Source: an uncultured virus (IMG/VR IMGVR_UViG_3300045391_005857)
Taxonomy: Duplodnaviria; Heunggongvirae; Uroviricota; Caudoviricetes
Direction: 5' to 3' (one strand)
Length of the DNA: 57,257 bases
Virus record (IMG/VR): IMGVR_UViG_3300045391_005857
Shown here: one piece after another, positions 1,326 to 43,300 of the stretch
Layout of the letters: every line of letters starts with the position of its first letter
How positions within the stretch are numbered: position 1 is the stretch's first letter
The notes under the pieces: generated by a model
What the model was told of the DNA's origin: nothing
The model's database searches: none
Seen by the model: the letters and a program-made list of their open reading frames with translations, nothing else
Position numbers and translations under genes: made by a program

Positions 1326-1892
1326 TTAGACCTCTTCGCCCGTCACGATATTTTCCGCTTTTATCCGCGCATCCAGATCGGCGAAATTGTCGTTAAGTGG
1401 CTTATCCTCAACGACTTGCGCCACGCTATCCACCACATTATCGGTTCCTAAGTACCGTTTCCAGTCCCAACTCTCGGGATCGCGAGCCCCAATCACCGCA
1501 TGCGTCCCAGTCGCGACCAGCACCGCGGCACTCCCCTTCGGTACCGCAGCCAACGCCTCCTCCACCGTCTCGAATGGCGCCTCGTACGACCCGTTGGGCG
1601 TCTTCTTCGCCCCACGCTTCCCGACGTACCAGGTGTAGGCGTCTGGACCCATGGGGCGACGTACCATCTCGCCCGCCCCAACCTCACCCATCTGCCCTAC
1701 CTCACGCCACAGACCACTCTGCCATTCATAGTCGCCACACCGCTTCAGCTCCCCGATCCGCACCGGCCTCCAGACCATGAACAGAACAGGCAGTCCCTCC
1801 CCGCTCACTTCGTCGCCATCACCCCACGCACCCTCAGTTAGCTCACCAGCTGCTGCGAGCTGCAGCACGGGATCGACCGGTTTCCTGGGCAT
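1326..1892 (-). CDS. hypothetical protein (188 aa)
   Basis: Long ORF, AGGGG upstream of ATG. Confidence 0.65.
   Translation of the reverse strand: MPRKPVDPVLQLAAAGELTEGAWGDGDEVSGEGLPVLFMVWRPVRIGELKRCGDYEWQSGLWREVGQMGEVGAGEMVRRPMGPDAYTWYVGKRGAKKTPNGSYEAPFETVEEALAAVPKGSAAVLVATGTHAVIGARDPESWDWKRYLGTDNVVDSVAQVVEDKPLNDNFADLDARIKAENIVTGEEV
1444..1456 (-). repeat. variant copy of dispersed 13-mer (GGTACTTAGGAAC)
   Basis: GTTCCTAAGTACC on + strand, one mismatch to the motif, inside a minus-strand gene. Confidence 0.6.
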
Positions 1893-1982
1893 TAGAATAA
1901 TCCCCTAAATTTCTAACGTGAGCAGGACACTTTAGCAGAGTTGCTGTTGACACGCCTACACGTTCCTCCGGACATTGAGCCC

Positions 1983-2714
1983 ATGCACACGCCCACACCG
2001 ATCGCCACGCTCCTTGGCCACAGCGTTCCCTTGTCGACCCAGAGCACCTTTTCGGGAATCGCTCCAGCCTCACCACGGCGTTTCAAGATTGCCCAGCTCG
2101 TAGCCTGCCTAGTTTCCCGTCCAGACGCCCACGCACAGGCCCTCCCGTCGGAATCGATACTCACGGGCATGGGGTCCTACGGTACAAAACAGGCCGGAAT
2201 TGAAGACAACCAAGGACAGAATCGAGGACAACCAATACCGCCAGATTGGGCTGAACTCCTTGCTGCGTATAGAGTTAAGTGCGGACAAGAGCTGGCGTAT
2301 TTGATGCCGGCATTCCGCCCATTCCAATTGCCATCCGGCAGGTGGCTGACGCCAGGGGCTCCTGGAGCCGCTAGCATTGCGCCAGGCGCAGTGCCACACG
2401 ACGCAGCCTATATCCGAAATAATGAGGACGTTAAAACCGCCGCGTCGATCATCGCACCGGCAGCTTCGCCCGCGCAAGCCCAGCAGGCCCTGAACTCGAT
2501 GATGCCTTATCCGGCCCGCCAGCCGCTTCCCGGCCTCTCCGCACCGCCTGGCGGCGGCCTCCCGGGACACGCGGCGATCAACAACACCATCCAGACCAAA
2601 GGCCCGATCTCAGCCAGCGGGGATTTCGGCAATCCCAACGCTGGGCAGGACGTGGCCATGCAGCCGGCTAAAATTGCCGGTTGGCTGAAGATGCGGCGAT
2701 TACTAGGTGTATGA
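1983..2714 (+). CDS. Pro/Ala/Gly-rich hypothetical, possible virion-internal protein
   Basis: ATG at 1983 within ORF 1941-2714; KQAG, KTAA and KIAG motifs. Confidence 0.6.
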   Translation: MHTPTPIATLLGHSVPLSTQSTFSGIAPASPRRFKIAQLVACLVSRPDAHAQALPSESILTGMGSYGTKQAGIEDNQGQNRGQPIPPDWAELLAAYRVKCGQELAYLMPAFRPFQLPSGRWLTPGAPGAASIAPGAVPHDAAYIRNNEDVKTAASIIAPAASPAQAQQALNSMMPYPARQPLPGLSAPPGGGLPGHAAINNTIQTKGPISASGDFGNPNAGQDVAMQPAKIAGWLKMRRLLGV

Positions 2715-3177
2715 CGTGGTGATCTACGCTCCCCGTGAGCCCTTCAGAATCGAGTATTTCGCTATGGACGCAGATATCATTGGCGGCTTCCCGACGGTCG
2801 ACCCCAACTGTGCCGGCTGTGGCAAGCCGCTGACCCAGGAGAATGCCTGGATGACGGACGGCTGTCCGTGCAACCATCCGCTGGGCTGCAACAACCAGAA
2901 CGAGACGCGGTGGCGACTGCTCATGCAGCTCCAGCAGGCGCAGTCACGCGACCTGGCCGGCGTGCTCAATGTGTTGGACCTCATGGGCATACCCAAGACC
3001 TACGAGGGTAACAGCGATGGCGTGCGGCGGACCGAGACGTATACTGTGCTCGGGCGGATGCGGGAGCTGCAGCACCGCATGCAGCAGCTCCAGCCGCGGG
3101 AGAAGCAAACGCTCTCGCCGAAAGACGCGGCCTTTGTCGACTTTGCCGGCGATCTGCACACTGCGTTTGGTGGTTGA
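2707..3177 (+). CDS. hypothetical protein with Cys cluster
   Basis: CAGC...CPC...C; start uncertain. Confidence 0.55.
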   Translation: MYDVVIYAPREPFRIEYFAMDADIIGGFPTVDPNCAGCGKPLTQENAWMTDGCPCNHPLGCNNQNETRWRLLMQLQQAQSRDLAGVLNVLDLMGIPKTYEGNSDGVRRTETYTVLGRMRELQHRMQQLQPREKQTLSPKDAAFVDFAGDLHTAFGG

Positions 3178-3181
3178 GTTT

Positions 3182-3194
3182 GGTACTTAGAAAC
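3182..3194 (+). repeat. dispersed 13-mer GGTACTTAGAAAC, copy 1
   Basis: Exact copy, intergenic, 2 nt before ATG 3197. Confidence 0.9.
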
Positions 3195-3196
3195 CC

Positions 3197-3829
3197 ATGA
3201 CTTGTTACTTAGTGCTCGGTACTCCGCGCAGCGGCACGAACGCCGTGGCCGGCGTTATGCACCGGCTTGGCATCATGATGGGCGAGCGATTCATTGCAGA
3301 CGATCCAGAATGGAACGCCAGAGGTTTTTACCAGGATGCTGATTTTCACGAGGCCCACGCCACATTATTCAGTGGGGACGAGTTTCCGCGGCTGGGCAGC
3401 ATTGTTGATTATGCCGACGTCGACCCCATCCGGGGGTTAGTGCGACGGCGGGTGGAAGCCGGGTCGGATTTCGGTTTTGCCGGAATGTACGTGCCGTGGC
3501 TATCGCCAAACGTCGTGGAGTGGTGCCGGCCAATGGCGGTAGCTGTAATTGTCGTGCGTCGGCCCTTTCATGAGAGCGTGCAGAGTTGGGCGGCCCGCAC
3601 CGGTACGCCGCTGGAGATTGTCTGCCACGGCATGGCCAGGGCACTATATGCAGTCGAGGAGGCGGCCGCGATTGTCGGCTGCTGCAAACTCGAACTAAGC
3701 TATCACGAGCTGCTGCGCGACAGGGAGTCGACAGTTAAGCGGATTGCCGAATTTGTTGGTCGCGACAGCAACCGGGCCGCAATCGATTTCATCGATCCGT
3801 CGTTGCGGCGGTTTGGATCGCCACTATGA
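3197..3829 (+). CDS. sulfotransferase-family protein
   Basis: N-terminal PAPS-loop GTPRSGT; IVVRRP...SVQSW; C-terminal SYHELL...RIAEFVG. Confidence 0.8.
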   Translation: MTCYLVLGTPRSGTNAVAGVMHRLGIMMGERFIADDPEWNARGFYQDADFHEAHATLFSGDEFPRLGSIVDYADVDPIRGLVRRRVEAGSDFGFAGMYVPWLSPNVVEWCRPMAVAVIVVRRPFHESVQSWAARTGTPLEIVCHGMARALYAVEEAAAIVGCCKLELSYHELLRDRESTVKRIAEFVGRDSNRAAIDFIDPSLRRFGSPL

Positions 3830-4086
3830 TCCGCGCACAGCGAGTCGAGGGCGGCGGTTACTGGGCGTTGACGTCCGACGGTCGTGAGTTTTTCTTGTCT
3901 GCAGAGCAAATCGGGACGTTGGTTCAGATCCCTGAGATCGGGTTGGCGTCGTGGCGGTCGCAATCGCAAGTCGCTAGGATTCAACAGGCAATTGCCGCCG
4001 GGCTCGGGCTCACGGCAGATTTGGTTACGGTGACGTTGGCGGGCGGTCGACTTATCAATGTCGAGATAGGCTATGGCCACGGTTAA
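3826..4086 (+). CDS. hypothetical protein (86 aa)
   Basis: ATGA-coupled to the upstream gene. Confidence 0.6.
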   Translation: MIRAQRVEGGGYWALTSDGREFFLSAEQIGTLVQIPEIGLASWRSQSQVARIQQAIAAGLGLTADLVTVTLAGGRLINVEIGYGHG

Positions 4087-5224
4087 TATCTGCGGTTTTG
4101 AAACAGGCGACGCCACCGAGTTGGTATCGCTCACTGGTACCGCGTCTATTCAGAGTAGCGTGGTTCGCACAGGCGGTTACGCGCTGCGGAGCAATCCGAC
4201 CGGCTCCGGTGGCGGCAGCGGCACACTATGGGGGCTCGACGCATCTGGCTTACCTGTAGTCCATTCTCTAACGACTTACTACATGCGGTTTTATTTTCGC
4301 TACGCCATCAAGCCTGCCGCGGGCAACGAGATGATCGCCGCGATCGACGGCGATAGTAGCGCGAAGTTCCAATCTGCGCTGTTGCTGAGGCTGAATAGCG
4401 ATGGCACGTTGGCTGCGTATAGGTCCAGGGGTAATTATTTGACTGCCGGTTTGCTAGGGACGGGCTCGGCGGTTTTGAGTCAGGATACTTGGTACCGTAT
4501 TGAAATGATGCGATCCAGCACCGCGCACGCACCCTGGGAGGTCAGAGTCAACGGAGTCACGGACATATCCGGATCTGACGGCCCCAGCGTTATAACGAGC
4601 GGGGCATTTACGCTCGGCAAGGCCGGCAATGCCAATTCGCAAACGGTGGACTTCTTCTACGACGACGTTGTGATCTCGAATTCGGGTTTCCCCGGCGCTG
4701 GTGCGGTCATTGCTTTACACCCCGACGGTACCATCGCCGACGACTGGAGTATCGGTGCTGGCTCAGGGAGCGACTATCAGCAAATCGATGAGACCACCCC
4801 GGATGGTGATACGACATACTTGGTAGCATCTGTAGTCGGCTCTACGGGTACGTTCACGTTGACGGATACCGGTATTGATCCGGCGTCGGTGATTAACACC
4901 TGCAAGTTGCTGGGTGGGTTCAAGACTGGAAGCGGCTCGCCGGCAGTTAATATGTTTTTGTCCACGGCGCTCGGCCACAACTGCGATCCGACAGGCGATT
5001 ACAGCACCACCGGCAGCTATGTGGTCCTAGGGCAAGTCAACGATACAGGTCCTGCGGTCGACGGGTCGCCGGCGTGGACGCCCGCCGATCTCGACGGCTG
5101 TTTTGCCAACATTCAATTTAGTTCCGGGGTGGGCAGCGTCCCGCGCTGTACATATTTAGCGGTGATGGTTGATTACGGCCCGCCACCTCAGCCGCCTGTG
5201 CGGACAATTTTAGGCGTGCTGTAA
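4073..5224 (+). CDS. Gly/Ser/Thr-rich beta-sandwich (LamG/lectin-like) protein, probably virion structural
   Basis: TWYRIE, VRVNG and FFYDDVVIS patterns typical of concanavalin-like folds. Confidence 0.6.
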   Translation: MATVNICGFETGDATELVSLTGTASIQSSVVRTGGYALRSNPTGSGGGSGTLWGLDASGLPVVHSLTTYYMRFYFRYAIKPAAGNEMIAAIDGDSSAKFQSALLLRLNSDGTLAAYRSRGNYLTAGLLGTGSAVLSQDTWYRIEMMRSSTAHAPWEVRVNGVTDISGSDGPSVITSGAFTLGKAGNANSQTVDFFYDDVVISNSGFPGAGAVIALHPDGTIADDWSIGAGSGSDYQQIDETTPDGDTTYLVASVVGSTGTFTLTDTGIDPASVINTCKLLGGFKTGSGSPAVNMFLSTALGHNCDPTGDYSTTGSYVVLGQVNDTGPAVDGSPAWTPADLDGCFANIQFSSGVGSVPRCTYLAVMVDYGPPPQPPVRTILGVL

Positions 5225-5250
5225 TCTCGTTTTGAAAAGGAAGTCATGCC

Positions 5251-6003
5251 ATGGGAATCAGATATCTGGAGCAGCGCGAGCCGCTCTCCCATCTCGTGCC
5301 CGTCTACTTCGTGTTCGCGGTGATCTTGGGTGTCATCTTGCTGGTTGCTGTCGCTCGCGGGCAGAACCCGCAGGCCGCGCCGCAGCAGCCGGTAGCTCGC
5401 CCACGCGGCCAATTGATCCAGAAGGCGAAGACGCTGATCAGCGGCGCTGTTGAGCAGGCCTCGCAGCTCCAGCAGCAGCCGCAGCAACCCAACCCGGCCC
5501 AAGATCAAATCTCCGATCGCTTCCCGCCGATCGTAGGCGCGACACCACGCGGCGGACCCATCAAGCCTGCGTTGCCTGGTGGCATCAGCTTCGTATGGCT
5601 CGAACTCACCGAGCAGCCCCACGACGGCGACACCGTCAAGGGCATCATCCACCTGCCGTTTGGCACGGACATTCGCGAGGCGTCCTATCGCGGTTACGGC
5701 TACGACACCTGCGAGGTCGATCATACCCGGCGAAACGCCAACCCGCCGATCACGGCCGCCGAGATCGTCATTGGTAAGAAGTGCCGCGATGATTTCCGGG
5801 CGCTGTTGGCCCAGCCCAACACGTTCTTGCTGGCCGAAGATCCGTTTATTAGCTCTACGCCGGGGCAAACCTACGATCGTACCGAGGCTCGCCTGGTGGT
5901 CTGGCAGAACAACCAGTACATCGACGTGGCGAAGTGGATGCAGGATCGTGGATATCTGCGTTCCCAGTTGCAACAGGCCGTGCCGCCAATTCCGGCCCAG
6001 TAG
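5251..6003 (+). CDS. membrane-anchored thermonuclease (SNase-like)
   Basis: N-terminal TM helix, Q/P linker, then HDGDTV...GYDTCE...YDRTEA...VAKWMQDRGY matching the SNase motif order. Confidence 0.65.
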   Translation: MGIRYLEQREPLSHLVPVYFVFAVILGVILLVAVARGQNPQAAPQQPVARPRGQLIQKAKTLISGAVEQASQLQQQPQQPNPAQDQISDRFPPIVGATPRGGPIKPALPGGISFVWLELTEQPHDGDTVKGIIHLPFGTDIREASYRGYGYDTCEVDHTRRNANPPITAAEIVIGKKCRDDFRALLAQPNTFLLAEDPFISSTPGQTYDRTEARLVVWQNNQYIDVAKWMQDRGYLRSQLQQAVPPIPAQ

Positions 6004-6012
6004 GAGCTGCCG

Positions 6013-6276
6013 ATGGAAATGCAAGAACTAGGCCCGGTCAAGCTGACGCAAAAGCTGCGAGATCACGTGCGGGCCACCCGCGGCGACGAGACGGCGGATT
6101 GCATCGCTAATTACGAGGTGGCGATCTTACGGATTGCCGGCCCGCGTTTTTCGCTCACGTTCCCCGGCTTACCGACTCAGCTTAACTTCGACCGGCAAGT
6201 CCAGCACCACGATGCGGCGATCGTGCTAGACGGTGCTCCGCGGGATTTTGATCTATTGACCGTCGCTGCCGATTGA
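6013..6276 (+). CDS. hypothetical protein (87 aa)
   Basis: AGGAG RBS upstream. Confidence 0.65.
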   Translation: MEMQELGPVKLTQKLRDHVRATRGDETADCIANYEVAILRIAGPRFSLTFPGLPTQLNFDRQVQHHDAAIVLDGAPRDFDLLTVAAD

Positions 6277-6300
6277 CAGTTGGATTTCTCTTGTCATAAT
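6273..6300 (+). promoter_or_regulatory. sigma70-like promoter
   Basis: TTGACA-16-CATAAT with extended -10 TG. Confidence 0.7.
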
Positions 6301-6312
6301 TCTGTCATGACA
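6291..6312 (+). repeat. 22-bp operator-like box, copy 1
   Basis: TTGTCATAATTCTGTCATGACA, identical to 10409-10430. Confidence 0.9.
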
Positions 6313-6494
6313 CGGACGCGAAACCGTGTCAGCGTCATTGTGACGCTGTTGCCCCGATCGCCGGAAATCTACCTAGTGCCAAATGGCCTCGGTGGGCGCG
6401 TCCCGGTGATCAAAGGCGATGGTTTAACGATACGCAGCAGCAAGGCAGGCAGTGGTCGGCTGGGTCGGAGCCCTACCGACCGCTGCCCTTTTTT
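6306..6494 (+). ncRNA. structured leader or sRNA of unknown class
   Basis: Stems 6308-15/6324-31, 6330-37/6341-48, 6356-64/6403-11, alternative 6345-52/6434-41, then terminator. Confidence 0.55.
6448..6494 (+). terminator. intrinsic terminator or attenuator
   Basis: GGCAGTGGTCGG/CCGACCGCTGCC 12-bp stem followed by T6. Confidence 0.7.
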
Positions 6495-6505
6495 GTAGGC
6501 GCAGG

Positions 6506-6727
6506 ATGGCCAGCAAACATCTCACGACGGGCGACATCGCGAAACTGTGTAACGTGTGCCCGCGAACCGTTGTCAAATGGTGCGACAGCGGGCTGTTGCC
6601 GCATATCAAGCTGCGGCCGAGCCGGCATCGCTGGATCACTCCCCAGGCGTTGGTGGAGTTCCTGCGGCAGCACAATAATCCTATTCCGGAGGAGCTGCAG
6701 TTATGCGTCGGCTCTGGATCGCAGTGA
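6506..6727 (+). CDS. MerR/excisionase-type HTH (HTH_17-like) DNA-binding protein
   Basis: LTTGDIAKLCNVCPRTVVKWCDSGLL...RHRWI. Confidence 0.85.
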   Translation: MASKHLTTGDIAKLCNVCPRTVVKWCDSGLLPHIKLRPSRHRWITPQALVEFLRQHNNPIPEELQLCVGSGSQ

Positions 6728-6957
6728 TCATGCCCGGCTGCAGCTTTCTGCTCGGGCATGTGTTCTTCAACTGGGCGCTGAAGCCGCACCCTTGGTATCC
6801 GGACTACGTCGCGATCCCGGTGATCGCCACGCTGGCCGCCATCGTTGTGTGCCGGCTGCGTGACGTGTATCGTGAGGACCAACAGCATTGGAAACTGCTG
6901 ATGGAGATTCGAGATCGGATCGAGGCTGAAAACCGCAGGGAGGCTAACCGCGCATGA
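6703..6957 (+). CDS. small membrane protein
   Basis: Two hydrophobic segments. Confidence 0.6.
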   Translation: MRRLWIAVIMPGCSFLLGHVFFNWALKPHPWYPDYVAIPVIATLAAIVVCRLRDVYREDQQHWKLLMEIRDRIEAENRREANRA

Positions 6958-7373
6958 GCTGGCTCATCGGACATCTGGTCGGGGATTACTTGCTGCAGAA
7001 CGATTGGCAGGCGCAGGGCAAGAAGAAGGCCCATCTGCCGTGCCTGGTGCACGTGTCGCTCTATACGCTGGCCGTGATGTTGTTCACGCAATGGCCGCTG
7101 TGGGCGATTCCCGTGATCTTCATCCCGCACTATCTGATCGATCGCTGGTCGTTCGTGCCCTGGTACATGCGGCTGATCGGGCAGGGTGATTTCATGAAGG
7201 CATCGCATCTGCAGACGGAGCAATACGGCAGCACGTGGCATGTGCCATGGCAGACGATAACTGATGTCAAGCTGCACATCGGCCTCGGCCCCTGGTCGAT
7301 CATCGTGGTCGATAATGTGATGCACCTCGTGTGCTTGTATTTCACTGATTTGCTCGTCAAAGCCTATGGTTAG
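6954..7373 (+). CDS. DUF3307-like membrane protein
   Basis: GHLVGDYLLQ...LVHV..Y...HYLID...DNVMH. Confidence 0.75.
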   Translation: MSWLIGHLVGDYLLQNDWQAQGKKKAHLPCLVHVSLYTLAVMLFTQWPLWAIPVIFIPHYLIDRWSFVPWYMRLIGQGDFMKASHLQTEQYGSTWHVPWQTITDVKLHIGLGPWSIIVVDNVMHLVCLYFTDLLVKAYG

Positions 7374-7509
7374 CGTCTGCATTACCGAGAAACAGCTCTT
7401 CCGCTGCCATCCGCGCGATATTGAGACCTTGCGGCCTGTGTTCAATGCCATCCGCGGCGAGATGCCAGGGTGTCGTCCAGTTATTATTCCTACTACTCCT
7501 GAAATCTAA
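7366..7509 (+). CDS. small hypothetical (47 aa, not in ORF track)
   Basis: MVSVCITEKQ...TTPEI fills the gap between coupled genes. Confidence 0.45.
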   Translation: MVSVCITEKQLFRCHPRDIETLRPVFNAIRGEMPGCRPVIIPTTPEI

Positions 7510-7746
7510 ATGCAGACGCGCACCTGGCCCTACGGCACCAAACTCAAAGCCCGCCTGGAGAGCAAGAAGCACCTGGAGAACGGTCGTTTCGCCGGCGCCT
7601 GGGTCATTATCCTGGTGGACGAGAATAACGAGGCCCAGGTGCTGTTGCAGGCACATGGCACGCCTAAGAACCCCGGCGACAAGTGCGAGATCGAGTTCTG
7701 CGAGGGCGGGCCGACGGGCGGCTATTGGAAGATCGTGGAGGCCTGA
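7510..7746 (+). CDS. hypothetical protein (78 aa)
   Basis: Abuts neighbours, GC-rich codon usage. Confidence 0.65.
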   Translation: MQTRTWPYGTKLKARLESKKHLENGRFAGAWVIILVDENNEAQVLLQAHGTPKNPGDKCEIEFCEGGPTGGYWKIVEA

Positions 7747-8114
7747 TGCGGTTATCACCAGCTACCCGCAGAGCCCTGAGCAACCTGCTGCATCGTCGCG
7801 AGATCAGCGCCGGCTGCAAGCGGCAGTGCGATTACGGCGGGCTCCAGGGTACGATCGCCAGCCTGGTGCGGCGTGGCCTGATCACATACGGCAAGGCCAA
7901 TGGTTACGAGCTGACGCTGCTAGGCCGCGAGGTGATCACGGCCTACGAGCGGATCGAATGGCGGGACAGTCTGCTGACCAAGTACGAGCGGCGGATTTAC
8001 GAGCTGGAGGAGATGCTCGAAATGACTATGCCGTACCTGCACGGCGACTTCCAGCGTGCGGCGCAGGCGTTGCTGCGGCAGAAGGTTGGGCAACCACCGA
8101 AAGGAAAGCTATGA
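7746..8114 (+). CDS. possible winged-helix plus coiled-coil protein
   Basis: TIASLVRRGLI...YELTLLGRE; TGATG coupling. Confidence 0.55.
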   Translation: MRLSPATRRALSNLLHRREISAGCKRQCDYGGLQGTIASLVRRGLITYGKANGYELTLLGREVITAYERIEWRDSLLTKYERRIYELEEMLEMTMPYLHGDFQRAAQALLRQKVGQPPKGKL

Positions 8115-8123
8115 GCGTGACCA

Positions 8124-8315
8124 ATGACAATCATCGCCAGGAAGAACGGCAAAACGTACGTCATCACCGAAGAAGATCAGCGCGAAATCCTAAAGCTGCT
8201 GGTCCAGTGCGGCGATTTAGAACTTGCGACGGATCAGTACATGCGGCGCAAGTACGGCGAGGCGTTCGTCCCAGAGCCCGAGACTAAGCCCGATGATCAC
8301 CATCCCCTTCGGTAA
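8124..8315 (+). CDS. hypothetical protein (63 aa)
   Basis: In-operon ORF. Confidence 0.55.
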   Translation: MTIIARKNGKTYVITEEDQREILKLLVQCGDLELATDQYMRRKYGEAFVPEPETKPDDHHPLR

Positions 8316-8562
8316 GCCCTTCGGCGATCTCCAATACCACTCGATGGAGGGCGAGTGCATCCGCAGCTTGCTGCAGTTTGCTGACACGTTCACCACGATC
8401 GACTACGAAGAACGCCGCGACGAGTGGATCGCTGAAGTGGTCGGTTGCACCCGTGAGGAGATCGGCGAGCCCCGGCAAGACTGGGCCGGCCTGCGGCGGC
8501 AGATCCTGGGCAGTTGCATGGTGGTAGAGGTCGCTCCCGATGTGTGGGCCAAATACACGTGA
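8293..8562 (+). CDS. MIxIPF-tag protein (MITIPF, 89 aa)
   Basis: ATG ATC ACC ATC CCC TTC. Confidence 0.7.
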   Translation: MITIPFGKPFGDLQYHSMEGECIRSLLQFADTFTTIDYEERRDEWIAEVVGCTREEIGEPRQDWAGLRRQILGSCMVVEVAPDVWAKYT

Positions 8563-8774
8563 TCGAAATCCCCTTTCGTACCTTCCGGCGACTCTCGAAT
8601 AAATGCCGCGAAGGCGACTACGTCTTCTGGCCAACGCCGATCGAGCTACGGTTCGGTATCTTGTCGCGTTTCGTTGAGCCCTGGCGTTACGGGCATACCA
8701 AAGTCCTGATATATACCTGGGTAGCGATTGGCGGCGAAATTCACAATGGTTACCAGTACGTGGATATCCCGTGA
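8559..8774 (+). CDS. MIxIPF-tag protein (MIEIPF, 71 aa)
   Basis: GTG ATC GAA ATC CCC TTT on GTGA overlap; paralog of 12175-12399. Confidence 0.7.
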   Translation: MIEIPFRTFRRLSNKCREGDYVFWPTPIELRFGILSRFVEPWRYGHTKVLIYTWVAIGGEIHNGYQYVDIP

Positions 8775-8846
8775 TCGAACTGCTTAAAAGATGAGCAAGC
8801 CAAGTTTGCTGAGCCAAGTATGTCGTTACCATTACTTTGGTGATCC

Positions 8847-9110
8847 ATGATCGAAATCCCCTTCACCCTCGACGTCGCGCCCTGGCTGTGGTGCCAGCAG
8901 CACGGCATGCATACGACGGCAGATAGCTATGCCCGGTCGCTCGCACTGCCCACGCCCGTCGATATCCATGCCATCTTCAACACCAGGCGGCTAACGGACG
9001 CCGAGGCAGCGGCCGTGCGGGCTCTTGACGGCGACGATGGCGATGCCGGTATCATTACGCTGAGTTATGAGGACCACGACACCGATTTTGCATGGAGGTC
9101 ATTGGAATGA
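8847..9110 (+). CDS. MIxIPF-tag protein (MIEIPF, 87 aa)
   Basis: ATG ATC GAA ATC CCC TTC. Confidence 0.7.
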   Translation: MIEIPFTLDVAPWLWCQQHGMHTTADSYARSLALPTPVDIHAIFNTRRLTDAEAAAVRALDGDDGDAGIITLSYEDHDTDFAWRSLE

Positions 9111-9610
9111 GCTACGACAGCACTAGCGACACGCTCGAACACATCCGCAACGTCAGCGAGCGGCTGTACCACTTCGGCTCCCAACTAGCACTGCGGGCCA
9201 AGCTGCACGACCAGAGCAAGCTCGATACGCCGGAGAAGGAGGCCCTTGACCAGTTTACGCCGCTGCTCAAAGGGTTGACCTACGGCAGCCAGGAGTACAA
9301 GGATGGGCTGGAGAAGAGCGGTCCGGCGATGGACATCTACCTGAAGCATCATTATGCCAACAATCGCCACCACCCGGAGTTCCATGGCGAAAAGGGCGTC
9401 GCCGGCATGACGCTGATCGACCTGGTGGAGATGCTATGCGATTGGCGCGCAGCTACCGAGCGACACGCTACCGGAAACATTCTGCGATCGCTGGAAATCA
9501 ATCGCGAGCGGTTCAAGCTCTCCGACCAGCTTTACGAGATCCTGCTCAATACGGTTAAAGCGCTAGGTTGGGATCAGGCATCGGGCCAAATCTCGCCCGA
9601 CAAGACGTAG
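9107..9610 (+). CDS. HD-like phosphohydrolase (DUF5662-like)
   Basis: H...HDQSK...HHYANNRHHPE...EMLCDW; GGAGG RBS. Confidence 0.75.
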   Translation: MSYDSTSDTLEHIRNVSERLYHFGSQLALRAKLHDQSKLDTPEKEALDQFTPLLKGLTYGSQEYKDGLEKSGPAMDIYLKHHYANNRHHPEFHGEKGVAGMTLIDLVEMLCDWRAATERHATGNILRSLEINRERFKLSDQLYEILLNTVKALGWDQASGQISPDKT

Positions 9611-10140: not shown

Positions 10141-10207
10141 AGACTGTTCACCTCGTGGCGGCTATTGTAGCATGTTGAAGTCACGTTGTGACTGGAAAGG
10201 CATTGGG

Positions 10208-10408
10208 ATGGTAAGTGCTGCTGAGCGACAGGCAGCCTGCGATCACCGCAGCAAGCACGAGCTGCCGCGGATCGCCGTCCGCGGTAAATGGTATCGCCGC
10301 TGGTCGTGCGGGCACTGCCACAAGCAGTGGTCCGAGTACGATCGGGACGTCGATCAGCGGAGCTTGACGGATTGCGAAGCTGCGGATGCTTCCCAAGGCA
10401 TCGTCTAG
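10208..10408 (+). CDS. small Zn-binding hypothetical
   Basis: CDH...CGHC; start uncertain. Confidence 0.45.
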   Translation: MVSAAERQAACDHRSKHELPRIAVRGKWYRRWSCGHCHKQWSEYDRDVDQRSLTDCEAADASQGIV

Positions 10409-10430
10409 TTGTCATAATTCTGTCATGACA
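10409..10430 (+). promoter_or_regulatory. 22-bp operator-like box, copy 2, with extended -10
   Basis: Identical to 6291-6312; TGTCATAAT; 11 nt before ATG 10442. Confidence 0.8.
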
Positions 10431-13521: not shown

Positions 13522-13558
13522 TTGCTATTCAGGCGTGCCACGCTCCGCCGTATATTCT

Positions 13559-13571
13559 GGTACTTAGAAAC
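13559..13571 (+). repeat. dispersed 13-mer, copy 2
   Basis: Exact GGTACTTAGAAAC, intergenic. Confidence 0.9.
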
Positions 13572-13598
13572 GGATTTTCCACCACGGAGGGCGGACGG

Positions 13599-14252
13599 AT
13601 GGAGCCGATCAAATGTTTCTTCGTCGAGCCAACGGGCGAAGTCGAACTCTACCTGCGACGCTATGTCGGCAGCGACAAAGCCAAGTGCCCCGGGCCAATG
13701 GGCTATCACGACGCCATGAAGCTGATTGGCGACGCGCCGGCGATCTATACCGAGCTGCACGGCCGCCGCGTGCTCGATCGCCGGCCGGAGGAGTTCAAGG
13801 ACGACGATCCGCGGTGGCCGACGGAGTGCATCTGCGGCTACAAGTTCCAGCCGGACGACAATCGCCAGATTTTCCAGGAGCAGGTCTATGTGCGACGAGA
13901 CACGGGAGAAGAATTCGGTCTACGTCATCTACCTGCTGGCGCTATGTACTTTGCTGACTGGATGCTACACGACGGCAGTAATCGCGATCGTGGCCCGGAT
14001 AACCATTCGCTGGTGGTGATGGTCCCGAGCCCCAAGACGGGCAAAGCCCATTGTTGGCATGTGGATTCACGCTGCAACAACTGTGACCTGCCCGACGACG
14101 ATGAGCACAAGTGCTGGGTGCGGCGCGGCGATCCGACGACGGGCATTATCACGGTCGATAAGAACGGCAAGACTTGCGGGGCGGGTGGCGGCAGTATACA
14201 AACAGACGATTGGCACGGGATGCTGACCGATGGAATCTTGAGGCAGTGTTAA
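13599..14252 (+). CDS. Cys/His-rich, probably metal-binding hypothetical
   Basis: CICG, HCWHVDSRCNNC...HKCW...WHG; GGAGG RBS. Confidence 0.75.
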   Translation: MEPIKCFFVEPTGEVELYLRRYVGSDKAKCPGPMGYHDAMKLIGDAPAIYTELHGRRVLDRRPEEFKDDDPRWPTECICGYKFQPDDNRQIFQEQVYVRRDTGEEFGLRHLPAGAMYFADWMLHDGSNRDRGPDNHSLVVMVPSPKTGKAHCWHVDSRCNNCDLPDDDEHKCWVRRGDPTTGIITVDKNGKTCGAGGGSIQTDDWHGMLTDGILRQC

Positions 14253-20199: not shown

Positions 20200-20382
20200 A
20201 TGGCCAAAACAGGACGTCCGACGAAGCAAGAGCCCGAAAAGCGTAACAAGCTGATGCAGGTGCGGATGCGTGCTGCGGATATGAAACGCTTCAACGCGGC
20301 TGCGATCAAAGCGGGGCTCGATCTCTCCGGCTGGGTACGCTCCCGGCTGTTAAATGTTGCCCGCCAGGAACTTGGTACTTAG
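20200..20382 (+). CDS. ribbon-helix-helix DNA-binding protein
   Basis: GRP...LMQVRM...F..AA..AGLDLSGWVR. Confidence 0.75.
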   Translation: MAKTGRPTKQEPEKRNKLMQVRMRAADMKRFNAAAIKAGLDLSGWVRSRLLNVARQELGT

Positions 20383-20386
20383 AAAC
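20374..20386 (+). repeat. dispersed 13-mer, copy 3
   Basis: Exact copy; supplies the TAG stop of the RHH gene. Confidence 0.9.
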
Positions 20387-20398
20387 CGTAGGCATAGC

Positions 20399-20830
20399 AT
20401 GTCTGATCGCGACTGGTATGCTAGCTGGCGACGCCGCACTCACGCCGCTTACGAACTCTACAACACCGCGAGTCTCGTCGATGATCGCGGATTCATTGAG
20501 CTGTATAACAAACTGGTGCATGAGTTGCAGTTCTGTCCGGAAGTAATTATTCGTCCATCTGTCACGGCGCTGCATAACGGCAGGCACGACATTCTGCTGA
20601 AGATCAGCGTGTACGATCCCGACGATCCTGCCATGAATCTGCCAGACGGCACGATACGCTTCCGCGACCTGTACTTTGGCAAGGTGACTCGCGGCGCTAA
20701 GAAGATTATGGGTATTATGCAAACTCTATTCGACGAAGCGGCTATGCATAAGCCGCGTAAACGACTACCGCCGTTGCCTTCGCCGCCGGTGGAACGGACA
20801 CGCGCGATCGATCTTAGTTGCGGAAAATAA
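20399..20830 (+). CDS. hypothetical protein
   Basis: ATG at 20399. Confidence 0.6.
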   Translation: MSDRDWYASWRRRTHAAYELYNTASLVDDRGFIELYNKLVHELQFCPEVIIRPSVTALHNGRHDILLKISVYDPDDPAMNLPDGTIRFRDLYFGKVTRGAKKIMGIMQTLFDEAAMHKPRKRLPPLPSPPVERTRAIDLSCGK

Positions 20831-35101: not shown

Positions 35102-35287
35102 ATGCCCACACAGACTGCTCCGCGTGAAATGGTCGTCAACCCTGCCGACTTTCAGCTCTTGCTGACGTCGCGCCGTAACATGATCCGCGAGAATCGCCGG
35201 CACCAAGGTTTGTTGGGTCTCCGCGATCGCGACACCGGTGAATTATTCTTGACCGAGGAGCGGAAGCTCAAACCGGTAGCTGTATGA
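35102..35287 (+). CDS. hypothetical protein
   Basis: GGAG RBS, ATG 35102. Confidence 0.55.
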   Translation: MPTQTAPREMVVNPADFQLLLTSRRNMIRENRRHQGLLGLRDRDTGELFLTEERKLKPVAV

Positions 35288-35484
35288 GCGACAATCTGGA
35301 CGTCGAATTCATGTCCCGCAGCGACCTCAAGGCTGAGGTGACCAAGCTCCGCGGCGAGAACAAAGGTCTGGTACTTAGAAACCGGGTGTTGCGGGCTCGC
35401 CCCGATCTACCGGTCGAACGAATGGATTTCCACGACGCCCTCGCCAGGGCTCAGGAAGAATTGGCAAAACTCCGTGGCAGCTAA
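35284..35484 (+). CDS. small coiled-coil protein
   Basis: ATGA-coupled. Confidence 0.6.
   Translation: MSDNLDVEFMSRSDLKAEVTKLRGENKGLVLRNRVLRARPDLPVERMDFHDALARAQEELAKLRGS
35370..35382 (+). repeat. dispersed 13-mer, copy 4
   Basis: Exact copy inside a CDS (VLRN). Confidence 0.9.
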
Positions 35485-36154
35485 TCATTGTCCGATCTGC
35501 GACTTCAAAAGCGGCTTTAAGAACTTTCGTGGCCGCGAGCGTGCTCAGTGTCCGACCTGCGGCTCACTGGAGCGGCACCGGCTCGTCTGGTTGTACTGGC
35601 GAGAGCAGACAACGCTGTTCGACGGTCAGCCCAAGCGGATGTTGCACTTCGCCCCCGAGGCTTGCTTCCGCGGCCGGCTGCCAAACGTCCCCGGCATCGA
35701 CTACCTCAGCGGCGATCTTAATCCGGGCTCCGTGAAAGCGATGCGGAAACTTAACCTGACCAGGCTGGACCTACCCAGCGAGACGTTTCAGGTGTTCCAT
35801 TGCTCCCATGTGCTGGAGCACATCCCCGACGACGCGGCGGCGATGCGCGAGCTGTACCGCGTGCTGGCTCCGGGCGGTTGGGGCATTATTCAGGTGCCGC
35901 TACGCCGGGGTGAGCATACCTACGTCGATCCCAATGCGAGGACCGCCGAGCAGCGGACGCGAGCCTACGGCCAGTACAACCACGTGCGAATTTACGGTGA
36001 ATTGGACCTTGCCCCGGCGCTGCGGATGGCCGGTTTTACGGTGGAGCCGACGCAGTACGGGCATGATCTGCCGTGGCAGATTGCCGGGAAATACGGGGTA
36101 GATCGTGACGAACTGCTGTTTTTCTGTTACAAAAATGGCCACGCGGAATCTTAA
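35474..36154 (+). CDS. Zn-ribbon plus class I SAM methyltransferase
   Basis: CPIC...CPTCGSLERHR, LHFAPE, CSHVLEHI, RVLAPGG. Confidence 0.88.
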   Translation: MAANHCPICDFKSGFKNFRGRERAQCPTCGSLERHRLVWLYWREQTTLFDGQPKRMLHFAPEACFRGRLPNVPGIDYLSGDLNPGSVKAMRKLNLTRLDLPSETFQVFHCSHVLEHIPDDAAAMRELYRVLAPGGWGIIQVPLRRGEHTYVDPNARTAEQRTRAYGQYNHVRIYGELDLAPALRMAGFTVEPTQYGHDLPWQIAGKYGVDRDELLFFCYKNGHAES

Positions 36155-36198: not shown

Positions 36199-36411
36199 AT
36201 GTTAGGTACGATCAAAAACCTCGCCGAAAAGGGATTCGGCTTTATCACCAAAGATGGGGCAGCTCGTGGGGATAAAGACTATTTCTTCCACTGCCGCGCC
36301 TTGCAGAACGCTTCCTTCGAGGAGTTGGAGCGGGGCCAACGTGTGGAGTTCGACACGGAGCCCGACCCACAAGGTCGCGGCGACCGGGCCATTAACGTAC
36401 GTCGCGTTTAG
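36199..36411 (+). CDS. cold-shock domain protein
   Basis: KGFGFI (RNP1), DYFFH (RNP2), GQRVEF...RAINV. Confidence 0.92.
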   Translation: MLGTIKNLAEKGFGFITKDGAARGDKDYFFHCRALQNASFEELERGQRVEFDTEPDPQGRGDRAINVRRV

Positions 36412-40015: not shown

Positions 40016-40076
40016 AGTTTGACGAAGCTGCTGCGTGGAGACGATACCACGGATTACTCCAAGGAGGGATGTAACG

Positions 40077-40394
40077 ATGCAGAGCAGCGACTGGCTCACA
40101 ATTGCCTTGTGGGGCTTGGGTGCACTGGGCACCGTGGTCGCAACTCTGATGGGTGTGCTGGCCTATTTCCTCAAGCGCCTCATCGATCAACTCGACAGCA
40201 CACGCCGCCAGGTGTTTTCGCTGCGAGATGAACTTCGCTCTATGCACGGGAAGTTCAAATTGTTCAAGATTGAGGTGCGCTTGCTGCTAACCAAGGCCGG
40301 CGTCAACACTCGCGAGATCGAAGAACTCGTCAAGCTGGCTGACGACGACGAGATCGCTGGTCCCTTGGACGACGTTGAGCTGCTGCCACCATGA
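40077..40394 (+). CDS. single-TM plus coiled-coil protein
   Basis: AAGGAGG RBS, N-terminal TM. Confidence 0.7.
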   Translation: MQSSDWLTIALWGLGALGTVVATLMGVLAYFLKRLIDQLDSTRRQVFSLRDELRSMHGKFKLFKIEVRLLLTKAGVNTREIEELVKLADDDEIAGPLDDVELLPP

Positions 40395-43300
40395 ACGATA
40401 TCTACTATTACGACGTTGGTGTAACGGTCGGCGCGATCTATCAGGCGTTACTGCGACGACCATCGGTCGAGAAGATTGCGGCCACGGCCGAACTGTCCTA
40501 CGGTCTGAAGGGACAGCTCTACAAATCGAGTGCCGGCTGGATTTTGCTGACGGTGCCGAATCATCTCGGCCGCGGGGCTTTCGATGCCCTCGGGGAGACC
40601 GGCATCGAGCTGCCGCTTAACAGCAAGGGCATCTACAACGCGCATATCTCGGTCATGCGACCCGAGGAGGTCGAGACGATCCCCGGCGGGGCCGGCGCGA
40701 TCAGCGAGCGGGGGCATGACTTCGCCTACACGCTAGGTCCGGTACGATCGGTGAAGCCGCACGGCTGGAGCGACGTCGCGAAGGTCTGGTACATCGAAGT
40801 TCACAGCCCTCAACTAGAACAACTGCGGAGAAGCTATGGGTTATCGTCACGACCGCGCGAAAACAAACATCGCTTCCACATCACGATCGCTATAAGAAAG
40901 TCGCAGGTCCTCCGGGAGAATGACAAGTCCAAAGCGGCTTCGTTCATTCACTACCCGGAGGAGATGTTTCGCGGTCGACTGGCGACAGCGGGACCTCCGC
41001 AGCTCGCCGAAGATGCTTTCCCCTGTTGTGATGCGGAGGCGGAGACTGGCGAGACGATCAAGACGGGGGAGGAAGCGATCGCGGCGCCAAAGGGTGAACT
41101 GTGCCCGTATTGTCAAGCGCGTTTAGAGTACAACCCCGACGATCAGACGTGCAACCATTGCGGCAAAGAGTATCCGCCGGAGAAGCTGGCGGCAGAGTCT
41201 GCCGGGCTCCATCCGGCAGTTGCACAGACAGTGCAACAGCATGGACAGATAGGTCCTGGCTTCCCCTACCAAAGCACAATCGGCCACGGGAAAGTTGGTC
41301 CCTTGATGCATTCGGACGCCGGGCTGGATTTTTTGCACCACGTACATGGCGATGCCGCCCGCGCTGGTTTGGGGCAGTCGTTACGCCGTAGCGGTTACGA
41401 CCCGACCAGCGAGCAGGCAACTAACGTCGGGCAGCAATTGTTCAATCAGCGATGGCCAACACAATTACCGCCGGTGCAATCAGGCAATGTTAGTCAGGCC
41501 GCTGGTGTCGGTGTGCAATTAGCCCCCGGTAGTTTTGAGCAGTCTTTGTACGGCATGCCTGCACACGGCATACTTAATCACGAGTTGGAGCATGTGCGAC
41601 AGGATCGCGTACCTGGCGGCGGGGCCGGGGTAGAGGTTGGGCCTAGTCTCGGTGATTTGGTATTCGCGAACGAGACGGCGAGACAGGTTACCGGGCAGCC
41701 TACGCAGCATCAGGTGACTTTTCCGAGTGGAAAAGAACACGACATCAACTGGATGACGGATCAAGCTAAGCAGCACGGGTATTTCGGCGGGAAGTCAATG
41801 GATGACTTATTGGCGACGCCGGCCGGTCAGCAGTGGTTACAGCAGGCGATTGGCGAGAAGGGGGCAGGTCTGCTGCCGTCGGTACACCTCCAGCCGCAAC
41901 AGCAACGCGTCTCGGACGAGATCAAACACCAACGCGTCCGTAAGCTCCTCTACCACTCCCTCGGCTCAGGCAAGACGCTGTCGTCTATCGCGGCCGCGGA
42001 ATCGGCTGGCGAGCCCTACCTGGCGACTGTGCCCGCGGCGCTGCGGCCGAACTTCAAGAACGAGCAAGCCCGCTGGACCGATCAACAAACGCCATCCGAG
42101 GTCGAGAGCTATTCCGCCCTCGCCAAGGGCGTCCCCCAGCAACACTTCGGCACCGCGATCTTCGACGAAGCCCAGCGACTGCGGAATGAGAACTCGCTAC
42201 AGACACAGCACGCTAAAGAAGTTGCGCGGCAGACGCCCAATCTGCTCATGCTCTCCGGCACTCCGATCGTGAACGGGCCAGGCGACTTCGCCCCGCTGGC
42301 CGAGATGCTCACGGGCAAGCCGCAGGACTCCAAGACGTTTGAGCAAACCTACGTCGGTCAGAAGACCGTGCGGCCTAGTCTGATGGCCCGCTTCCGCGGC
42401 GTGCAGCCGGCGAAGGTGCCGGTACTTAGAAACCAAGACCAGCTCAAAAAGCTGCTCGCCGGCCACGTCGATTACCACGCGCCGGCGAAGCCCGACGTCG
42501 AGCAAGTCGAGGAGCGTTATGAGACGCCCATGTCGGGCGAGCAGACGAAACTCTACCAGGCTTTCTGGAATCAGTTGCCGTGGGTGCTCCGCTGGAAGCT
42601 GCAGCACGAGTTCCCGCTCTCCAAGCAGGAGATCGGTAATCTATCCTCGTTCCTGGCCGGCCCTCGTCAGGTTTCCTTGTCAACGCTGCCCTTTATGCGC
42701 GGCCGTCGCGACCCGTACAAAGCCTTCCAACAATCACCCAAGCTCCAGCGGGCGATGCAGCTCGCTGAAGAGACGCTCGGCAGCAATCCCAACGCCAAGA
42801 TCGTCGCGTTCTCAAATTTCCTCGAAGCGGGCCTGCAGCCGTACGCAGCGGCGTTGGCTGCTAAGAAAATCCCCTATGCCATCTTTCATGGCGGCATGAA
42901 TGATGCCGAGCGCAAGCGGGCCGTCGCCGACTACAACGCTAATCGTATCCGGGCACTCCTCATCGCTCCGGCCGGCGCCGAGGGCATCTCCCTCAAGCAT
43001 ACCAACGCGCTGCAGCTCCTCGACCCGCACTGGAACGAAGCCCGCCTCGATCAGGCGATCGGCCGCGGCATCCGCTTCGATTCGCACACCGATCTACCGC
43101 CCGAGCAGCGGAAGGTGCGGGTGCAACGGTTCTTGTCGACGCTGCCGCCAGGCGTGCTATCGCGGCTGTGGCGGTACATCATTCAAACCAAGCCCAACAC
43201 CGAAAAAAGCAGCCCGGGTGTCGACCTGTACCTGGAGCACCGGGCCCGGAAGAAACAGGAGCTGAATAACCAGTTCCTCAATCTGCTCAAGGAGATCGGA

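Follow-up and report, generated by a model that had tools for sequence, protein, structure and literature searches.

The window, the whole 57,257-nt stretch of DNA analyzed here, belongs to an uncultured phage of roughly 200 kb. It carries a short, repeated DNA word, encodes several small HTH and ribbon-helix-helix (RHH) proteins, and ends within a gene for an RNA polymerase (RNAP). The features that concern the repeat are as follows:

1441..1457, - strand: variant copy of the motif, GGTACTTAGGAAC, within the minus-strand gene 1326-1868, frame RYLGT
3181..3197, + strand: motif with its flanks, T-GGTACTTAGAAAC-CCA, intergenic, 4 nt past the stop of gene 2707-3177
3197..3829, + strand: sulfotransferase-like gene, ATG 2 nt after the motif, no Shine-Dalgarno (SD) site
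13558..13574, + strand: motif copy, intergenic, followed 27 nt on by an ATG at 13599
13599..14252, + strand: gene following the 13559 copy, 217 aa, without a family match
20373..20389, + strand: motif copy, GT-stop frame, its TAG being the stop of the RHH gene 20143-20382
20399..20830, + strand: gene downstream of the 20374 copy, ATG 12 nt after the motif, 143 aa, no family found
35369..35385, + strand: motif copy in the 66-codon ORF 35284-35484, frame VLRN
42420..42436, + strand: motif copy deep in a 1061-aa 2H-phosphoesterase/SNF2 helicase gene, codons 677-680, frame VLRN
53224..57255, + strand: fused β + β'-N RNAP gene, running past the window end

The repeat reported in a preliminary description of this DNA is real. 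GGTACTTAGAAAC is the most repeated 13-mer in the window, with exact + strand copies at 3182, 13559, 20374, 35370, and 42421 (n=5) and one copy with a single mismatch, GGTACTTAGGAAC, on the - strand at 1444-1456 (n=1). These are the 6 matches found at ≤2 mismatches; 100 dinucleotide-preserving shuffles of the window gave a mean of 0.32, and 0/100 reached 6. Allowing 3 mismatches gains just 2 sites (8 found vs 5.0 expected), and thus the 13-mer has no degenerate halo. The conserved motif does, however, extend beyond 13 nt, to ~17 nt with its flanks: among 21 copies at ≤1 mismatch, taken from the window and three related contigs, the 5' base is C or T in 21/21, and the 3' bases are C (18/21), then G/A (19/21), then A (15/21). 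The minus-strand block of the window, 29.8-34.7 kb, has no copy. Rfam gave 0 matches over the entire window at the gathering threshold, and a σ70 consensus scan of positions 1-20000 found 8 sites vs 6.9 expected, none coinciding with a motif copy. A literature search with the motif strings returned a single match, an unrelated herpesvirus paper.

The intergenic positions (3182 and 13559) and the frames in which the other copies are read (VLRN at 35370 and 42421, GT-stop at 20374, RYLGT at 1444) are as previously described, and the imposed codons are indeed unusual, CTT making up 6.1% of Leu codons, AGA 2.3% of Arg, and GTA 9.2% of Val in window genes. At 3181..3197, the final A of the flank doubles as the first base of the start codon of gene 3197-3829; since the N-terminus of the product, MTCYLVLGTPRSGT, leads directly into a P-loop-like segment, this ATG is probably the true start. 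The ATG at 13599 has its own SD site, GGAGGG. A methyltransferase gene (35474-36154) begins 91 nt downstream of the 35369..35385 copy, and the next minus-strand start after the 1441..1457 copy, at 1278, lies 165 nt downstream. The A-to-G variant of the latter copy is seen twice more, in contig G003. The copy at 42420..42436 is a candidate internal promoter; the SNF2 part of its gene has an orthologue in contig G009 only, and G009 lacks the motif.

The same 13-mer is present in three IMG/VR contigs, G001 (n=3), G002 (n=5), and G003 (n=4 exact plus 3 with one mismatch), in all of which a backwards control word has 0 matches. The RNAP of G002 is just 61% identical to that of the window and the DNA otherwise barely aligns, yet the 13-mer is letter-identical. 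Two other relatives carry variants, each being the word repeated most often in its genome: GGTAATTAGAAAC / GTAATTAGAAAC in G013 (13 copies) and GGTAAATARGAAC, written GTAAATA[A/G]GAAC, in G012 (15 copies). The variants differ by one to three bases, in concert, a pattern that fits a phage-encoded reader. A scaffold, GGTA..TA..AAC, is found in six contigs; a reversed control scaffold occurs 0-1 times per contig. One orthologous site, ahead of a metallophosphatase gene, is common to G003 and G013. The letter identity in G002 and the concerted variants elsewhere support the earlier proposal of selection at the DNA level. An exact 13-mer in phages diverged past DNA alignment would need explanation even if the promoter reading developed below is wrong.

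Of 29 large relatives searched whole at ≤1 mismatch, only G013 has the motif; two others gave a single stray match apiece, and the remaining 26 gave none. No counterpart was found in G009, where only SD words are enriched upstream of starts. When three variants were scanned as 14-mers against IMG/VR, each was multi-copy only in its own contig(s) among the matches listed (80 of 102, 98, and 119 or more stretches), the others being single matches. A 10-kb portion of the window matched none of the phage records searched with megablast, and single-protein IMG/VR searches with the helicase or the polymerase found no relatives; a polymerase alignment was needed. Matches in genome_contigs comprise 20 loci in MAGs; the MAG labels span unrelated phyla, identity is at most 60%, and none has the motif. 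No host is assigned.

The window polymerase is a β/β'-N fusion, with a Pfam Rpb2_6 match (1.3e-56) plus Rpb1 matches, and it presumably acts as the catalytic partner of whichever factor reads the motif. At E ≤ 1e-20 it has 598 homologues, in environmental phage contigs of up to 229 kb. A Pfam scan of window ORF translations found no sigma gene, and Pfam Sigma70_r2 had no match in G001-G003; sigma was found later through gp10 of Arash, a cultured Salmonella phage. Homologues of gp10 are present in G001, G002, G012, G013, and G009, all of the phages examined. The family profile matches SigA regions 2-4 (E = 4.8e-10), and 4/4 members match Pfam Sigma70_r3 and Sigma70_r4. The second Arash sigma, gp196, has no match in the related contigs (tblastn, E ≤ 1e-3). 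Among the 92 ORF translations of the window that were scanned with Pfam, none matched a T7-type single-subunit RNAP.

Arash also has a repeated word. Its most repeated 10-mer, GGTATAAGTA (reverse complement TACTTATACC), occurs in 16 copies, and all 16 copies of TACTTATACC are on the minus strand. For 13/16 copies, an ORF of ≥45 codons begins 14-58 nt downstream, its start codon preceded by an SD site, and one copy is located 10 nt before a tRNA gene. In appearance, GGTATAAGTA resembles an extended -10 element. Like the motif of the window, it begins with GGTA, spans ~16 nt, lacks a -35 element, and occurs (16 copies) in a phage with the same set of polymerase and sigma; unlike it, the Arash word is confined to one strand, is followed by ordinary leaders with starts 14-58 nt on, and differs in sequence past GGTA. 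In Arash, both the polymerase and sigma are virion proteins. The Arash paper is the only one on a cultured member of the group, and the word "promoter" has 0 occurrences in it (PMC10585845).

The placement of the motif was analyzed for 48 copies in six contigs, using gene calls from a simple in-house caller. A co-oriented start codon lies 2-60 nt downstream of 24/48 copies (random 3.8%, P = 9e-22) and 2-8 nt downstream of 12/48 (random 0.54%, P = 4e-17); the latter distance leaves no room for an SD site. The minimum spacing is 2 nt, 0 or 1 never being seen. The ATGs directly 3' of the motif yield N-termini that align with those of orthologues having an SD site in the motif's place, and thus these ATGs are true starts. 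The other start-proximal copies (12/24) lie 11-51 nt upstream of a gene that has its own SD site. Just 12/48 copies are deep in genes, vs 87.5% at random, and 36/48 are outside gene interiors, vs 12.5% expected. Density is about one copy per 12-20 kb, with enrichment in the accessory-gene part of the genomes. The strand bias is modest over the six contigs (31/48 copies on the majority strand, 17/48 on the minority strand, P = 0.03); orientation follows transcription in the window, as had been claimed, but only loosely in relatives.

These position statistics and the analogous Arash motif make a promoter the best-supported reading of the repeat, and from them we infer, short of proof, what had been one candidate among several. 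The 13-mer is probably the core of a -10-type, phage-specific promoter, with a start 1-2 nt after the motif and leaderless or short-leader mRNAs. The ~17-nt promoter would read Y-GG-TA[C/A][T/A]TA-[G/A][A/G]AACC-R/A and would have three parts: a -10-like hexamer behind GG, in the style of an extended -10; a conserved discriminator; and a purine start point 1-2 nt past AAC-C. The hexamer would be TACTTA here, TAATTA and TAAATA in two relatives, and TATAAG in Arash. The reader would most likely be a phage σ70-family factor together with the phage's own two-chain RNAP. Where the ATG is 2-8 nt away, little or no leader would be expected; with an ATG farther off, the transcript would have a short leader bearing its own SD site. 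Copies within genes and on the opposite strand could serve as internal or antisense promoters. The motif itself, its conservation and concerted lineage variants, its position before start codons, and the sigma genes are observed, whereas promoter function, the start point, the sigma and polymerase involved, and the timing in infection are inferred.

Compared with σ70-type -10 promoters, the details are mixed. Motif positions 3-4 are always TA, and the two bases in the middle change from lineage to lineage, as in -10 elements. A purine lies 1-2 nt past the motif, at the distance of 6-8 nt from the hexamer where such promoters would start transcription, and no start codon precedes it (spacing ≥2). 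Other details fit less well. The 17 minority-strand copies and the 12 deep in genes count against the promoter reading. The hexamer is preceded by GG, not TGn, and ends in A, so that the proposed -7 base is A, where σ70 promoters have T. The gp10-family sigma has region 4, yet neither a -35 element nor an A/T-rich upstream element is conserved at the motif copies, and the proposed promoter would lack a -35 element. At 9-15 copies in roughly 190 kb, the motif must be joined by at least one further class of promoter.

The short spacing to the ATG could also reflect a signal in the RNA, either an endonuclease processing site between cistrons or an SD-independent translation start or re-initiation element. 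In many places the motif exactly fills the gap from a stop codon to the following ATG. For 9/12 short-spacing genes (2-8 nt), the stop of the preceding ORF falls within the motif or ≤4 nt before it; thus, translational coupling could serve these genes without leaderless mRNA. In addition, short-spacing genes lack an SD site, vs 47-74% of all called genes in these contigs that have one. However, an RNA-level role is quite improbable given the copies 11-51 nt ahead of genes with their own SD site and the 17/48 exact copies whose strand is rarely transcribed as mRNA, but which are still conserved and mostly intergenic. The position of the Arash counterpart, ahead of ordinary SD-ATG starts, and the lack of a match to any Rfam family also argue against it.

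Strong hairpins adjoin some of the opposite-strand copies. Six of these 17 run into a terminator-like hairpin of -17 to -27 kcal/mol, which directly precedes the motif on the gene strand and takes its tail from the motif's U-rich complement. This arrangement is not expected from a plain promoter model. The hairpins, the concentration of copies of both orientations at gene boundaries, and the small HTH and RHH proteins encoded in the window would suit a boundary element bound by a sequence-specific DNA-binding protein, acting as a regulator, roadblock, or part of a terminator at the ends of transcription units rather than a start site. Nevertheless, such an element is improbable: 0/31 majority-strand copies have a hairpin, a roadblock leaves the ATG at 2-8 nt and the purine 1-2 nt past the motif unexplained, and the -10-like layout common to Arash points to the initiation machinery.

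Strand-specific nick sites are known in T5-like or phiKMV-like phages, and the word is oriented, low in copy number (~1 per 12-20 kb), and enriched among accessory genes. It might instead be a site for a DNA transaction: a nick site, a polar word like Chi or KOPS, a signal for packaging or replication, or a recombination junction for accessory-gene shuffling, which PeSL promoter/stem-loop cassettes are described as mediating in the available text of PMC2839356. This is very improbable. Nicking, packaging, or replication would not account for placement 2-60 nt before start codons; orientation has no single-point switch along G013, G012, G002, or G003; and a role in shuffling would add to a promoter role, not replace it. 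Likewise, the packaging, segregation, and nucleoid-protein sites offered in the preliminary description do not fit because copies cluster at gene boundaries directly before start codons. Chi and KOPS words are 5-8 nt, dense, replication-oriented, and indifferent to start codons or gene boundaries. The motif, at 13-17 nt, one per 12-20 kb, and mostly outside gene interiors, is not of this class.

The promoter reading can be extended to a two-way boundary signal for a virion-delivered phage holoenzyme of β/β'-N, β'-C, and sigma, although this extension is rather unlikely. In the forward direction, the motif would be a -35-less promoter, starting on or just before the ATG and making leaderless mRNAs in an SD-using host. 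In reverse, its U-rich complement behind a hairpin would complete an intrinsic terminator. The promoter would also fire back into the hairpin, insulating adjacent transcription units, and each lineage would have re-tuned the word along with its sigma.

If the promoter reading is true, an almost unstudied group of large phages becomes directly testable. According to the available text of two reviews, known jumbo-phage polymerases lack a sigma homologue, and sigma factors occur in phages that have no polymerase of their own (PMC7824862, PMC13282480). The bacterial-type polymerase occurs in hundreds of environmental phage contigs plus cultured Arash, and a candidate lineage-specific promoter would be the first testable DNA signal for this system. 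It would supply templates for in vitro transcription and predictions of start sites and leaderless mRNAs; the C/A and T/A swaps would be natural specificity variants for studies of sigma-DNA recognition; and the motif would offer a way to divide these genomes into transcription units.

Among known systems, the PeSL cassettes of T4-type phages are similar in being compact units of upstream stop, promoter, and start among accessory genes, sometimes combined with a terminator stem-loop, as far as the available text of PMC2839356 describes them. They differ in being host σ70 promoters with -35 and -10 boxes, in about 50 copies per genome; the motif here lacks a -35, has 9-15 copies, and has a stem-loop only at opposite-strand copies (6/48).

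The virion-RNAP promoters of phiKZ-like phages, in the text available from PMC5312081, are lengthy and strongly conserved, with transcription beginning at a set point a few nt on; single changes in them are not tolerated, and internal and antisense copies exist. The AR9 early promoter, AAATATATATTAT-(6N)-G, is likewise a 13-nt, near-invariant, A/T-rich word in tens of copies or fewer, and the early promoters of phiKZ and AR9 resemble the motif in their start a few nt downstream (here predicted) and in their internal and antisense copies (PMC5312081, same text). As in phiKZ-like systems, the polymerase of the group is probably virion-borne, judging from the Arash proteome as given in the available text (PMC10585845). 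However, phiKZ-like polymerases are described in the accessible review text as split, non-canonical, and without a sigma homologue (PMC7824862, PMC13282480), whereas the enzyme here is a bacterial-type β/β'-N fusion with its own sigma homologue. In addition, AR9 leaders are 26-491 nt and the available text gives no leaderless transcript for phiKZ, whereas here the ATG is often 2-8 nt after the motif.

The extended -10 consensus is TGnTATAAT, with T at -12, A at -11, T at -7, and an optional TG at -15/-14. Unlike such promoters, the motif has a hexamer that ends in A rather than T, a GG that is adjacent without a spacer base, six bases past the hexamer that are equally conserved, and copies that are letter-perfect rather than degenerate. 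Like them, it combines GG, a TA..TA hexamer, a discriminator, and a purine, with a dispensable -35, and a σ70-family factor containing regions 3 and 4 is encoded by every phage of the group examined. A single base separates the Arash form, tGGTATAAG, from the textbook consensus.

The 13-mer GGTACTTAGAAAC is the most repeated word of its length in the window, where a word search finds exact copies on the plus strand and a one-mismatch variant on the minus strand, just as the preliminary description had reported:

1444-1456, minus strand: one-mismatch variant GGTACTTAGGAAC, gene-internal
3182, plus strand: exact copy; a sulfotransferase-like gene has its ATG 2 nt downstream
13559, plus strand: exact copy, with a Shine-Dalgarno (SD) site and ATG 27 nt downstream
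20374, plus strand: exact copy, from which a ribbon-helix-helix gene takes its stop codon; the next ATG is 12 nt downstream
35370, plus strand: exact copy, with a methyltransferase gene 91 nt downstream
42421, plus strand: exact copy, gene-internal

The reading frames and intergenic positions match that description as well, and the codons it called unusual are indeed rare: CTT, AGA, and GTA make up 6.1%, 2.3%, and 9.2% of their codon families in window genes. The copies also stand far above chance; in 100 dinucleotide-preserving shuffles, matches with at most two mismatches average 0.32, and no shuffle reaches six. Since allowing three mismatches adds only two sites (8 found versus 5.0 expected), the word is sharply defined. 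A second repeated word, (A)TGATCGAAATCCCCTT, is present in five plus-strand copies (8560, 8848, 10922, 12176, and 12397). Two small called genes (8847-9110 and 12396-12629) have the copies at 8848 and 12397 beginning at their ATG; there the word would encode MIEIPF, suggesting that the products are small proteins of one paralogous family.

The observation also extends to related phages, in which the preliminary description had proposed to look for conservation. In a 14-mer scan of IMG/VR, three contigs have multiple matches among the matches listed (80 of 102 matching stretches). These three related contigs, G001 (59 kb), G002 (104 kb), and G003 (112 kb), were searched whole at ≤1 mismatch and contain the same 13-mer in 3 copies, 5 copies, and 4 exact plus 3 one-mismatch copies, respectively; a backwards control word has no match in them. 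By gene order relative to the nearly complete genome G013, G003 and G002 are adjoining parts of one genome, and G001 and the window correspond to different, non-overlapping parts of the G013 type of genome, though they may derive from different phages. At the DNA level the window aligns with G002 only, and there only in the polymerase gene (~65%; 61% protein identity). When 29 large relatives were searched whole at ≤1 mismatch, 26 gave no match, G012 and G021 gave one stray match each, and G013 was the sole carrier, with 11 copies of GGTAATTAGAAAC. G013 also has 13 copies of GTAATTAGAAAC, and G012, the sister of G002 in the polymerase tree, has GGTAAATAAGAAC and GGTAAATAGGAAC in a total of 15 copies, counting one with a different first base. 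In both G013 and G012 the genome's own variant is the top repeated word. The variants have in common the scaffold GGTA-N-W-TA-R-R-AAC(C), which when reversed as a control occurs 0-1 time per contig and which has no copy in G009, a member of a large sister clade. The motif genomes take the basal places in a FastTree polymerase tree, with (window,(G012,G002)) first, G013 next, and 52 motif-free rows after them. Every copy within a genome is of one variant, which speaks for a reader evolving together with the phage. Closer relatives of the window's phage have polymerases 68% identical, P0001 and P0002, on contigs of 177 and 213 kb. G009 (L224-L233) has about 30 matches, genic and intergenic, to a near-palindrome, CTCATTGATATCAATGAG, that includes TGATATCAA in both directions. 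Contigs of the phage group (L462-L481) have been binned into metagenome-assembled genomes (MAGs) that carry the labels of very different phyla (Planctomycetota, Nanopelagicales, Methylococcales, Aquaspirillum, and others), most likely through mis-binning, and they provide no host signal.

Conservation takes in one base on the 5' side of the 13-mer (C or T) and three on its 3' side (C, then R or C, then A); no conserved bases and no -35-like block are found upstream. Positions 3-8 form a hexamer, TACTTA in the window, TAATTA in G013, and TAAATA in G012, with two fixed bases at either end and a middle pair that differs between lineages, as in -10 elements. The hexamer is preceded by GG and followed after 7-8 nt by a purine, ahead of which no start codon lies. 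The motif is probably a -10-type promoter without a -35 element, specific for the phage's σ factor and polymerase and giving rise to leaderless or short-leader mRNAs; we infer its start point, reader, and timing. Transcription would begin 1-2 nt after the motif. A signal acting in the RNA, a site for a boundary protein, and sites for DNA transactions are less likely explanations. Host-type σ70 sites in the first 20 kb of the window are at chance level in total count; the best of them (6273-6300, plus strand; 11/12) has TTGACA, a 16-nt spacer, and CATAAT with a TG, and lies ahead of a small HTH gene (6506-6727).

Placement relative to genes was scored for all 48 copies, lineage variants included, over six contigs, using a simple codon-bias gene caller whose choice of start is blind to the motif.

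Placement of the 48 motif copies (observed; random expectation; P)
On the majority gene strand: 31/48; 50%; 0.03
Co-oriented start codon ≤60 nt downstream: 24/48; 3.8%; 9e-22
Co-oriented start codon ≤8 nt downstream: 12/48; 0.54%; 4e-17
Inside a gene by more than 15 nt: 12/48; 87.5%; 4e-23

The 24 motif-to-start spacings are 2, 2, 2, 2, 3, 4, 4, 4, 5, 5, 6, and 8 nt in one half and 11, 12, 13, 17, 17, 20, 22, 26, 27, 27, 49, and 51 nt in the other, and are never 0 or 1 nt. The genes with short spacings have no room for an SD site, a feature present in 47-74% of all called genes. Their ATGs are real starts, because the N-termini align with those of SD-bearing orthologues, in which the SD site occupies the motif's place. 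Such matches are seen for MARAGWYDESEYRDYPF of G001 (versus G002, G013, and G009), for the metallophosphatase of G003 and G013 (versus G009), and for MLQFARSNPWRAPHWRW of G013 (versus G002 and G009). Since the metallophosphatase gene has the motif upstream in both G003 and G013, its position there is orthologous. For 9 of the 12 short-spacing genes, the preceding ORF ends in the motif or ≤4 nt from it, and so translational coupling could stand in for the leaderless step. Orthologues are lacking for most of the other genes next to a motif, and it is the accessory part of the genomes that is enriched in copies.

The remaining 17 of the 48 copies lie on the minority strand. Five of these fall within genes, the G003 DNA polymerase gene among them, and one (window 1444) is co-oriented with its local minus-strand gene. 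Six of the 17 lead directly into a hairpin (-17.4 to -26.6 kcal/mol; random 44-mers: mean -10.4, 5th percentile -17.7), a feature that none of the majority-strand copies (0 of 31) has. Examples of minority-strand copies with a hairpin are G003 3365 and G012 27722, 115606, and 119763. Along the gene strand the six give a terminator-like unit, in which the hairpin precedes the motif's U-rich complement, with SD-ATG coming after both; along the motif strand they would be promoters that fire into a hairpin, and a T-run is present in three.

The proposed reader is a phage-encoded σ factor together with the phage polymerase. The window is 60% G+C, with nearly all genes on the plus strand, and includes the following:

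9574-10140, minus strand: free-standing NUMOD4 + HNH_3 homing-endonuclease gene amid plus-strand genes
29596-34663, mostly minus strand: acyl-carrier-like protein, family-2 glycosyltransferase, radical-SAM-like protein, and methyltransferase; may be a sugar or modification module; motif absent from its minus strand
36199-36411, plus strand: phage cold-shock-domain protein (Pfam CSD, 4.6e-17)
40391-43576, plus strand: 1061-aa fusion of a 2H phosphoesterase domain and a SNF2-type helicase; the 2H part stands alone as a small gene in G002, G013, G012, and G009; for the helicase part, only G009 has an orthologue
53224-57255, plus strand, cut by the window's end: RNA polymerase gene that joins β in frame with an N-terminal portion of β' (Pfam Rpb2_6, 1.3e-56; Rpb1_2)

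In an alignment of 16 members, the polymerase fusion extends through the catalytic DFDGD loop. The family comprises 598 proteins at E ≤ 1e-20, typically ~1460 aa, on contigs of up to 229 kb; some members contain intein/LAGLIDADG domains. The nearest named phages by polymerase (31-33% identity) are Salmonella phage Arash and Vibrio phages D181, D148, and D69. The polymerase subunits gp206, which had the most spectra, and gp216 have been detected in Arash virions together with the σ factor gp10 (PMC10585845). The contigs G001, G002, G012, G013, and G009 each have a gp10 homologue (tblastn E 1e-9 to 2e-17); the gp10-like gene of G001 is at 42384-43166. All four gp10 homologues examined match Pfam Sigma70_r3 and Sigma70_r4, and their profile matches SigA over regions 2 to 4.2 (E = 4.8e-10). 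The second annotated σ factor of Arash, gp196, has no tblastn match in the contigs of the group that were examined.

Arash (OQ632216; 53% G+C) has a counterpart of the motif. Its most repeated 10-mer is TACTTATACC, the reverse complement of GGTATAAGTA, which with its flanks reads (c)tGGTATAAGTAaRgtRt, much like an extended -10 element. The 16 copies all share the minus strand, which carries the non-structural genes. Downstream of 13 of them, at a distance of 14-58 nt, an ORF of ≥45 codons has its SD-preceded start; two are ahead of shorter ORFs, and one is 10 nt upstream of an annotated tRNA-Asn. This setting matches the textbook picture of a promoter. Arash also contains a five-copy dispersed repeat element, in which inverted GGTTACAACGTTTG words are paired exactly 144 nt apart with similar flanks:

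Arash 26628/26772
Arash 66375/66519
Arash 100131/100275
Arash 138478/138622
Arash 173252/173396

Within the reach of our searches, the literature has no account of the motif or of a promoter for this polymerase group, and the word "promoter" does not occur in the Arash paper (PMC10585845). The Arash and window words have in common the leading GGTA, their length, the lack of a -35 element, and a purine at the same offset, in Arash about 7 nt after TATAAG. Two reviews describe the known jumbo-phage polymerases as having no σ homologues (PMC7824862, PMC13282480). The phiKZ-like jumbo phage AR9, too, has internal and antisense promoter copies. Phage λ makes a short antisense RNA, oop, and this RNA is one of the two nearest parallels to the hairpin copies. 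The other is the PeSL (promoter-early stem-loop) cassette of T4-type phages, which combines a promoter with a stem-loop (PMC2839356).
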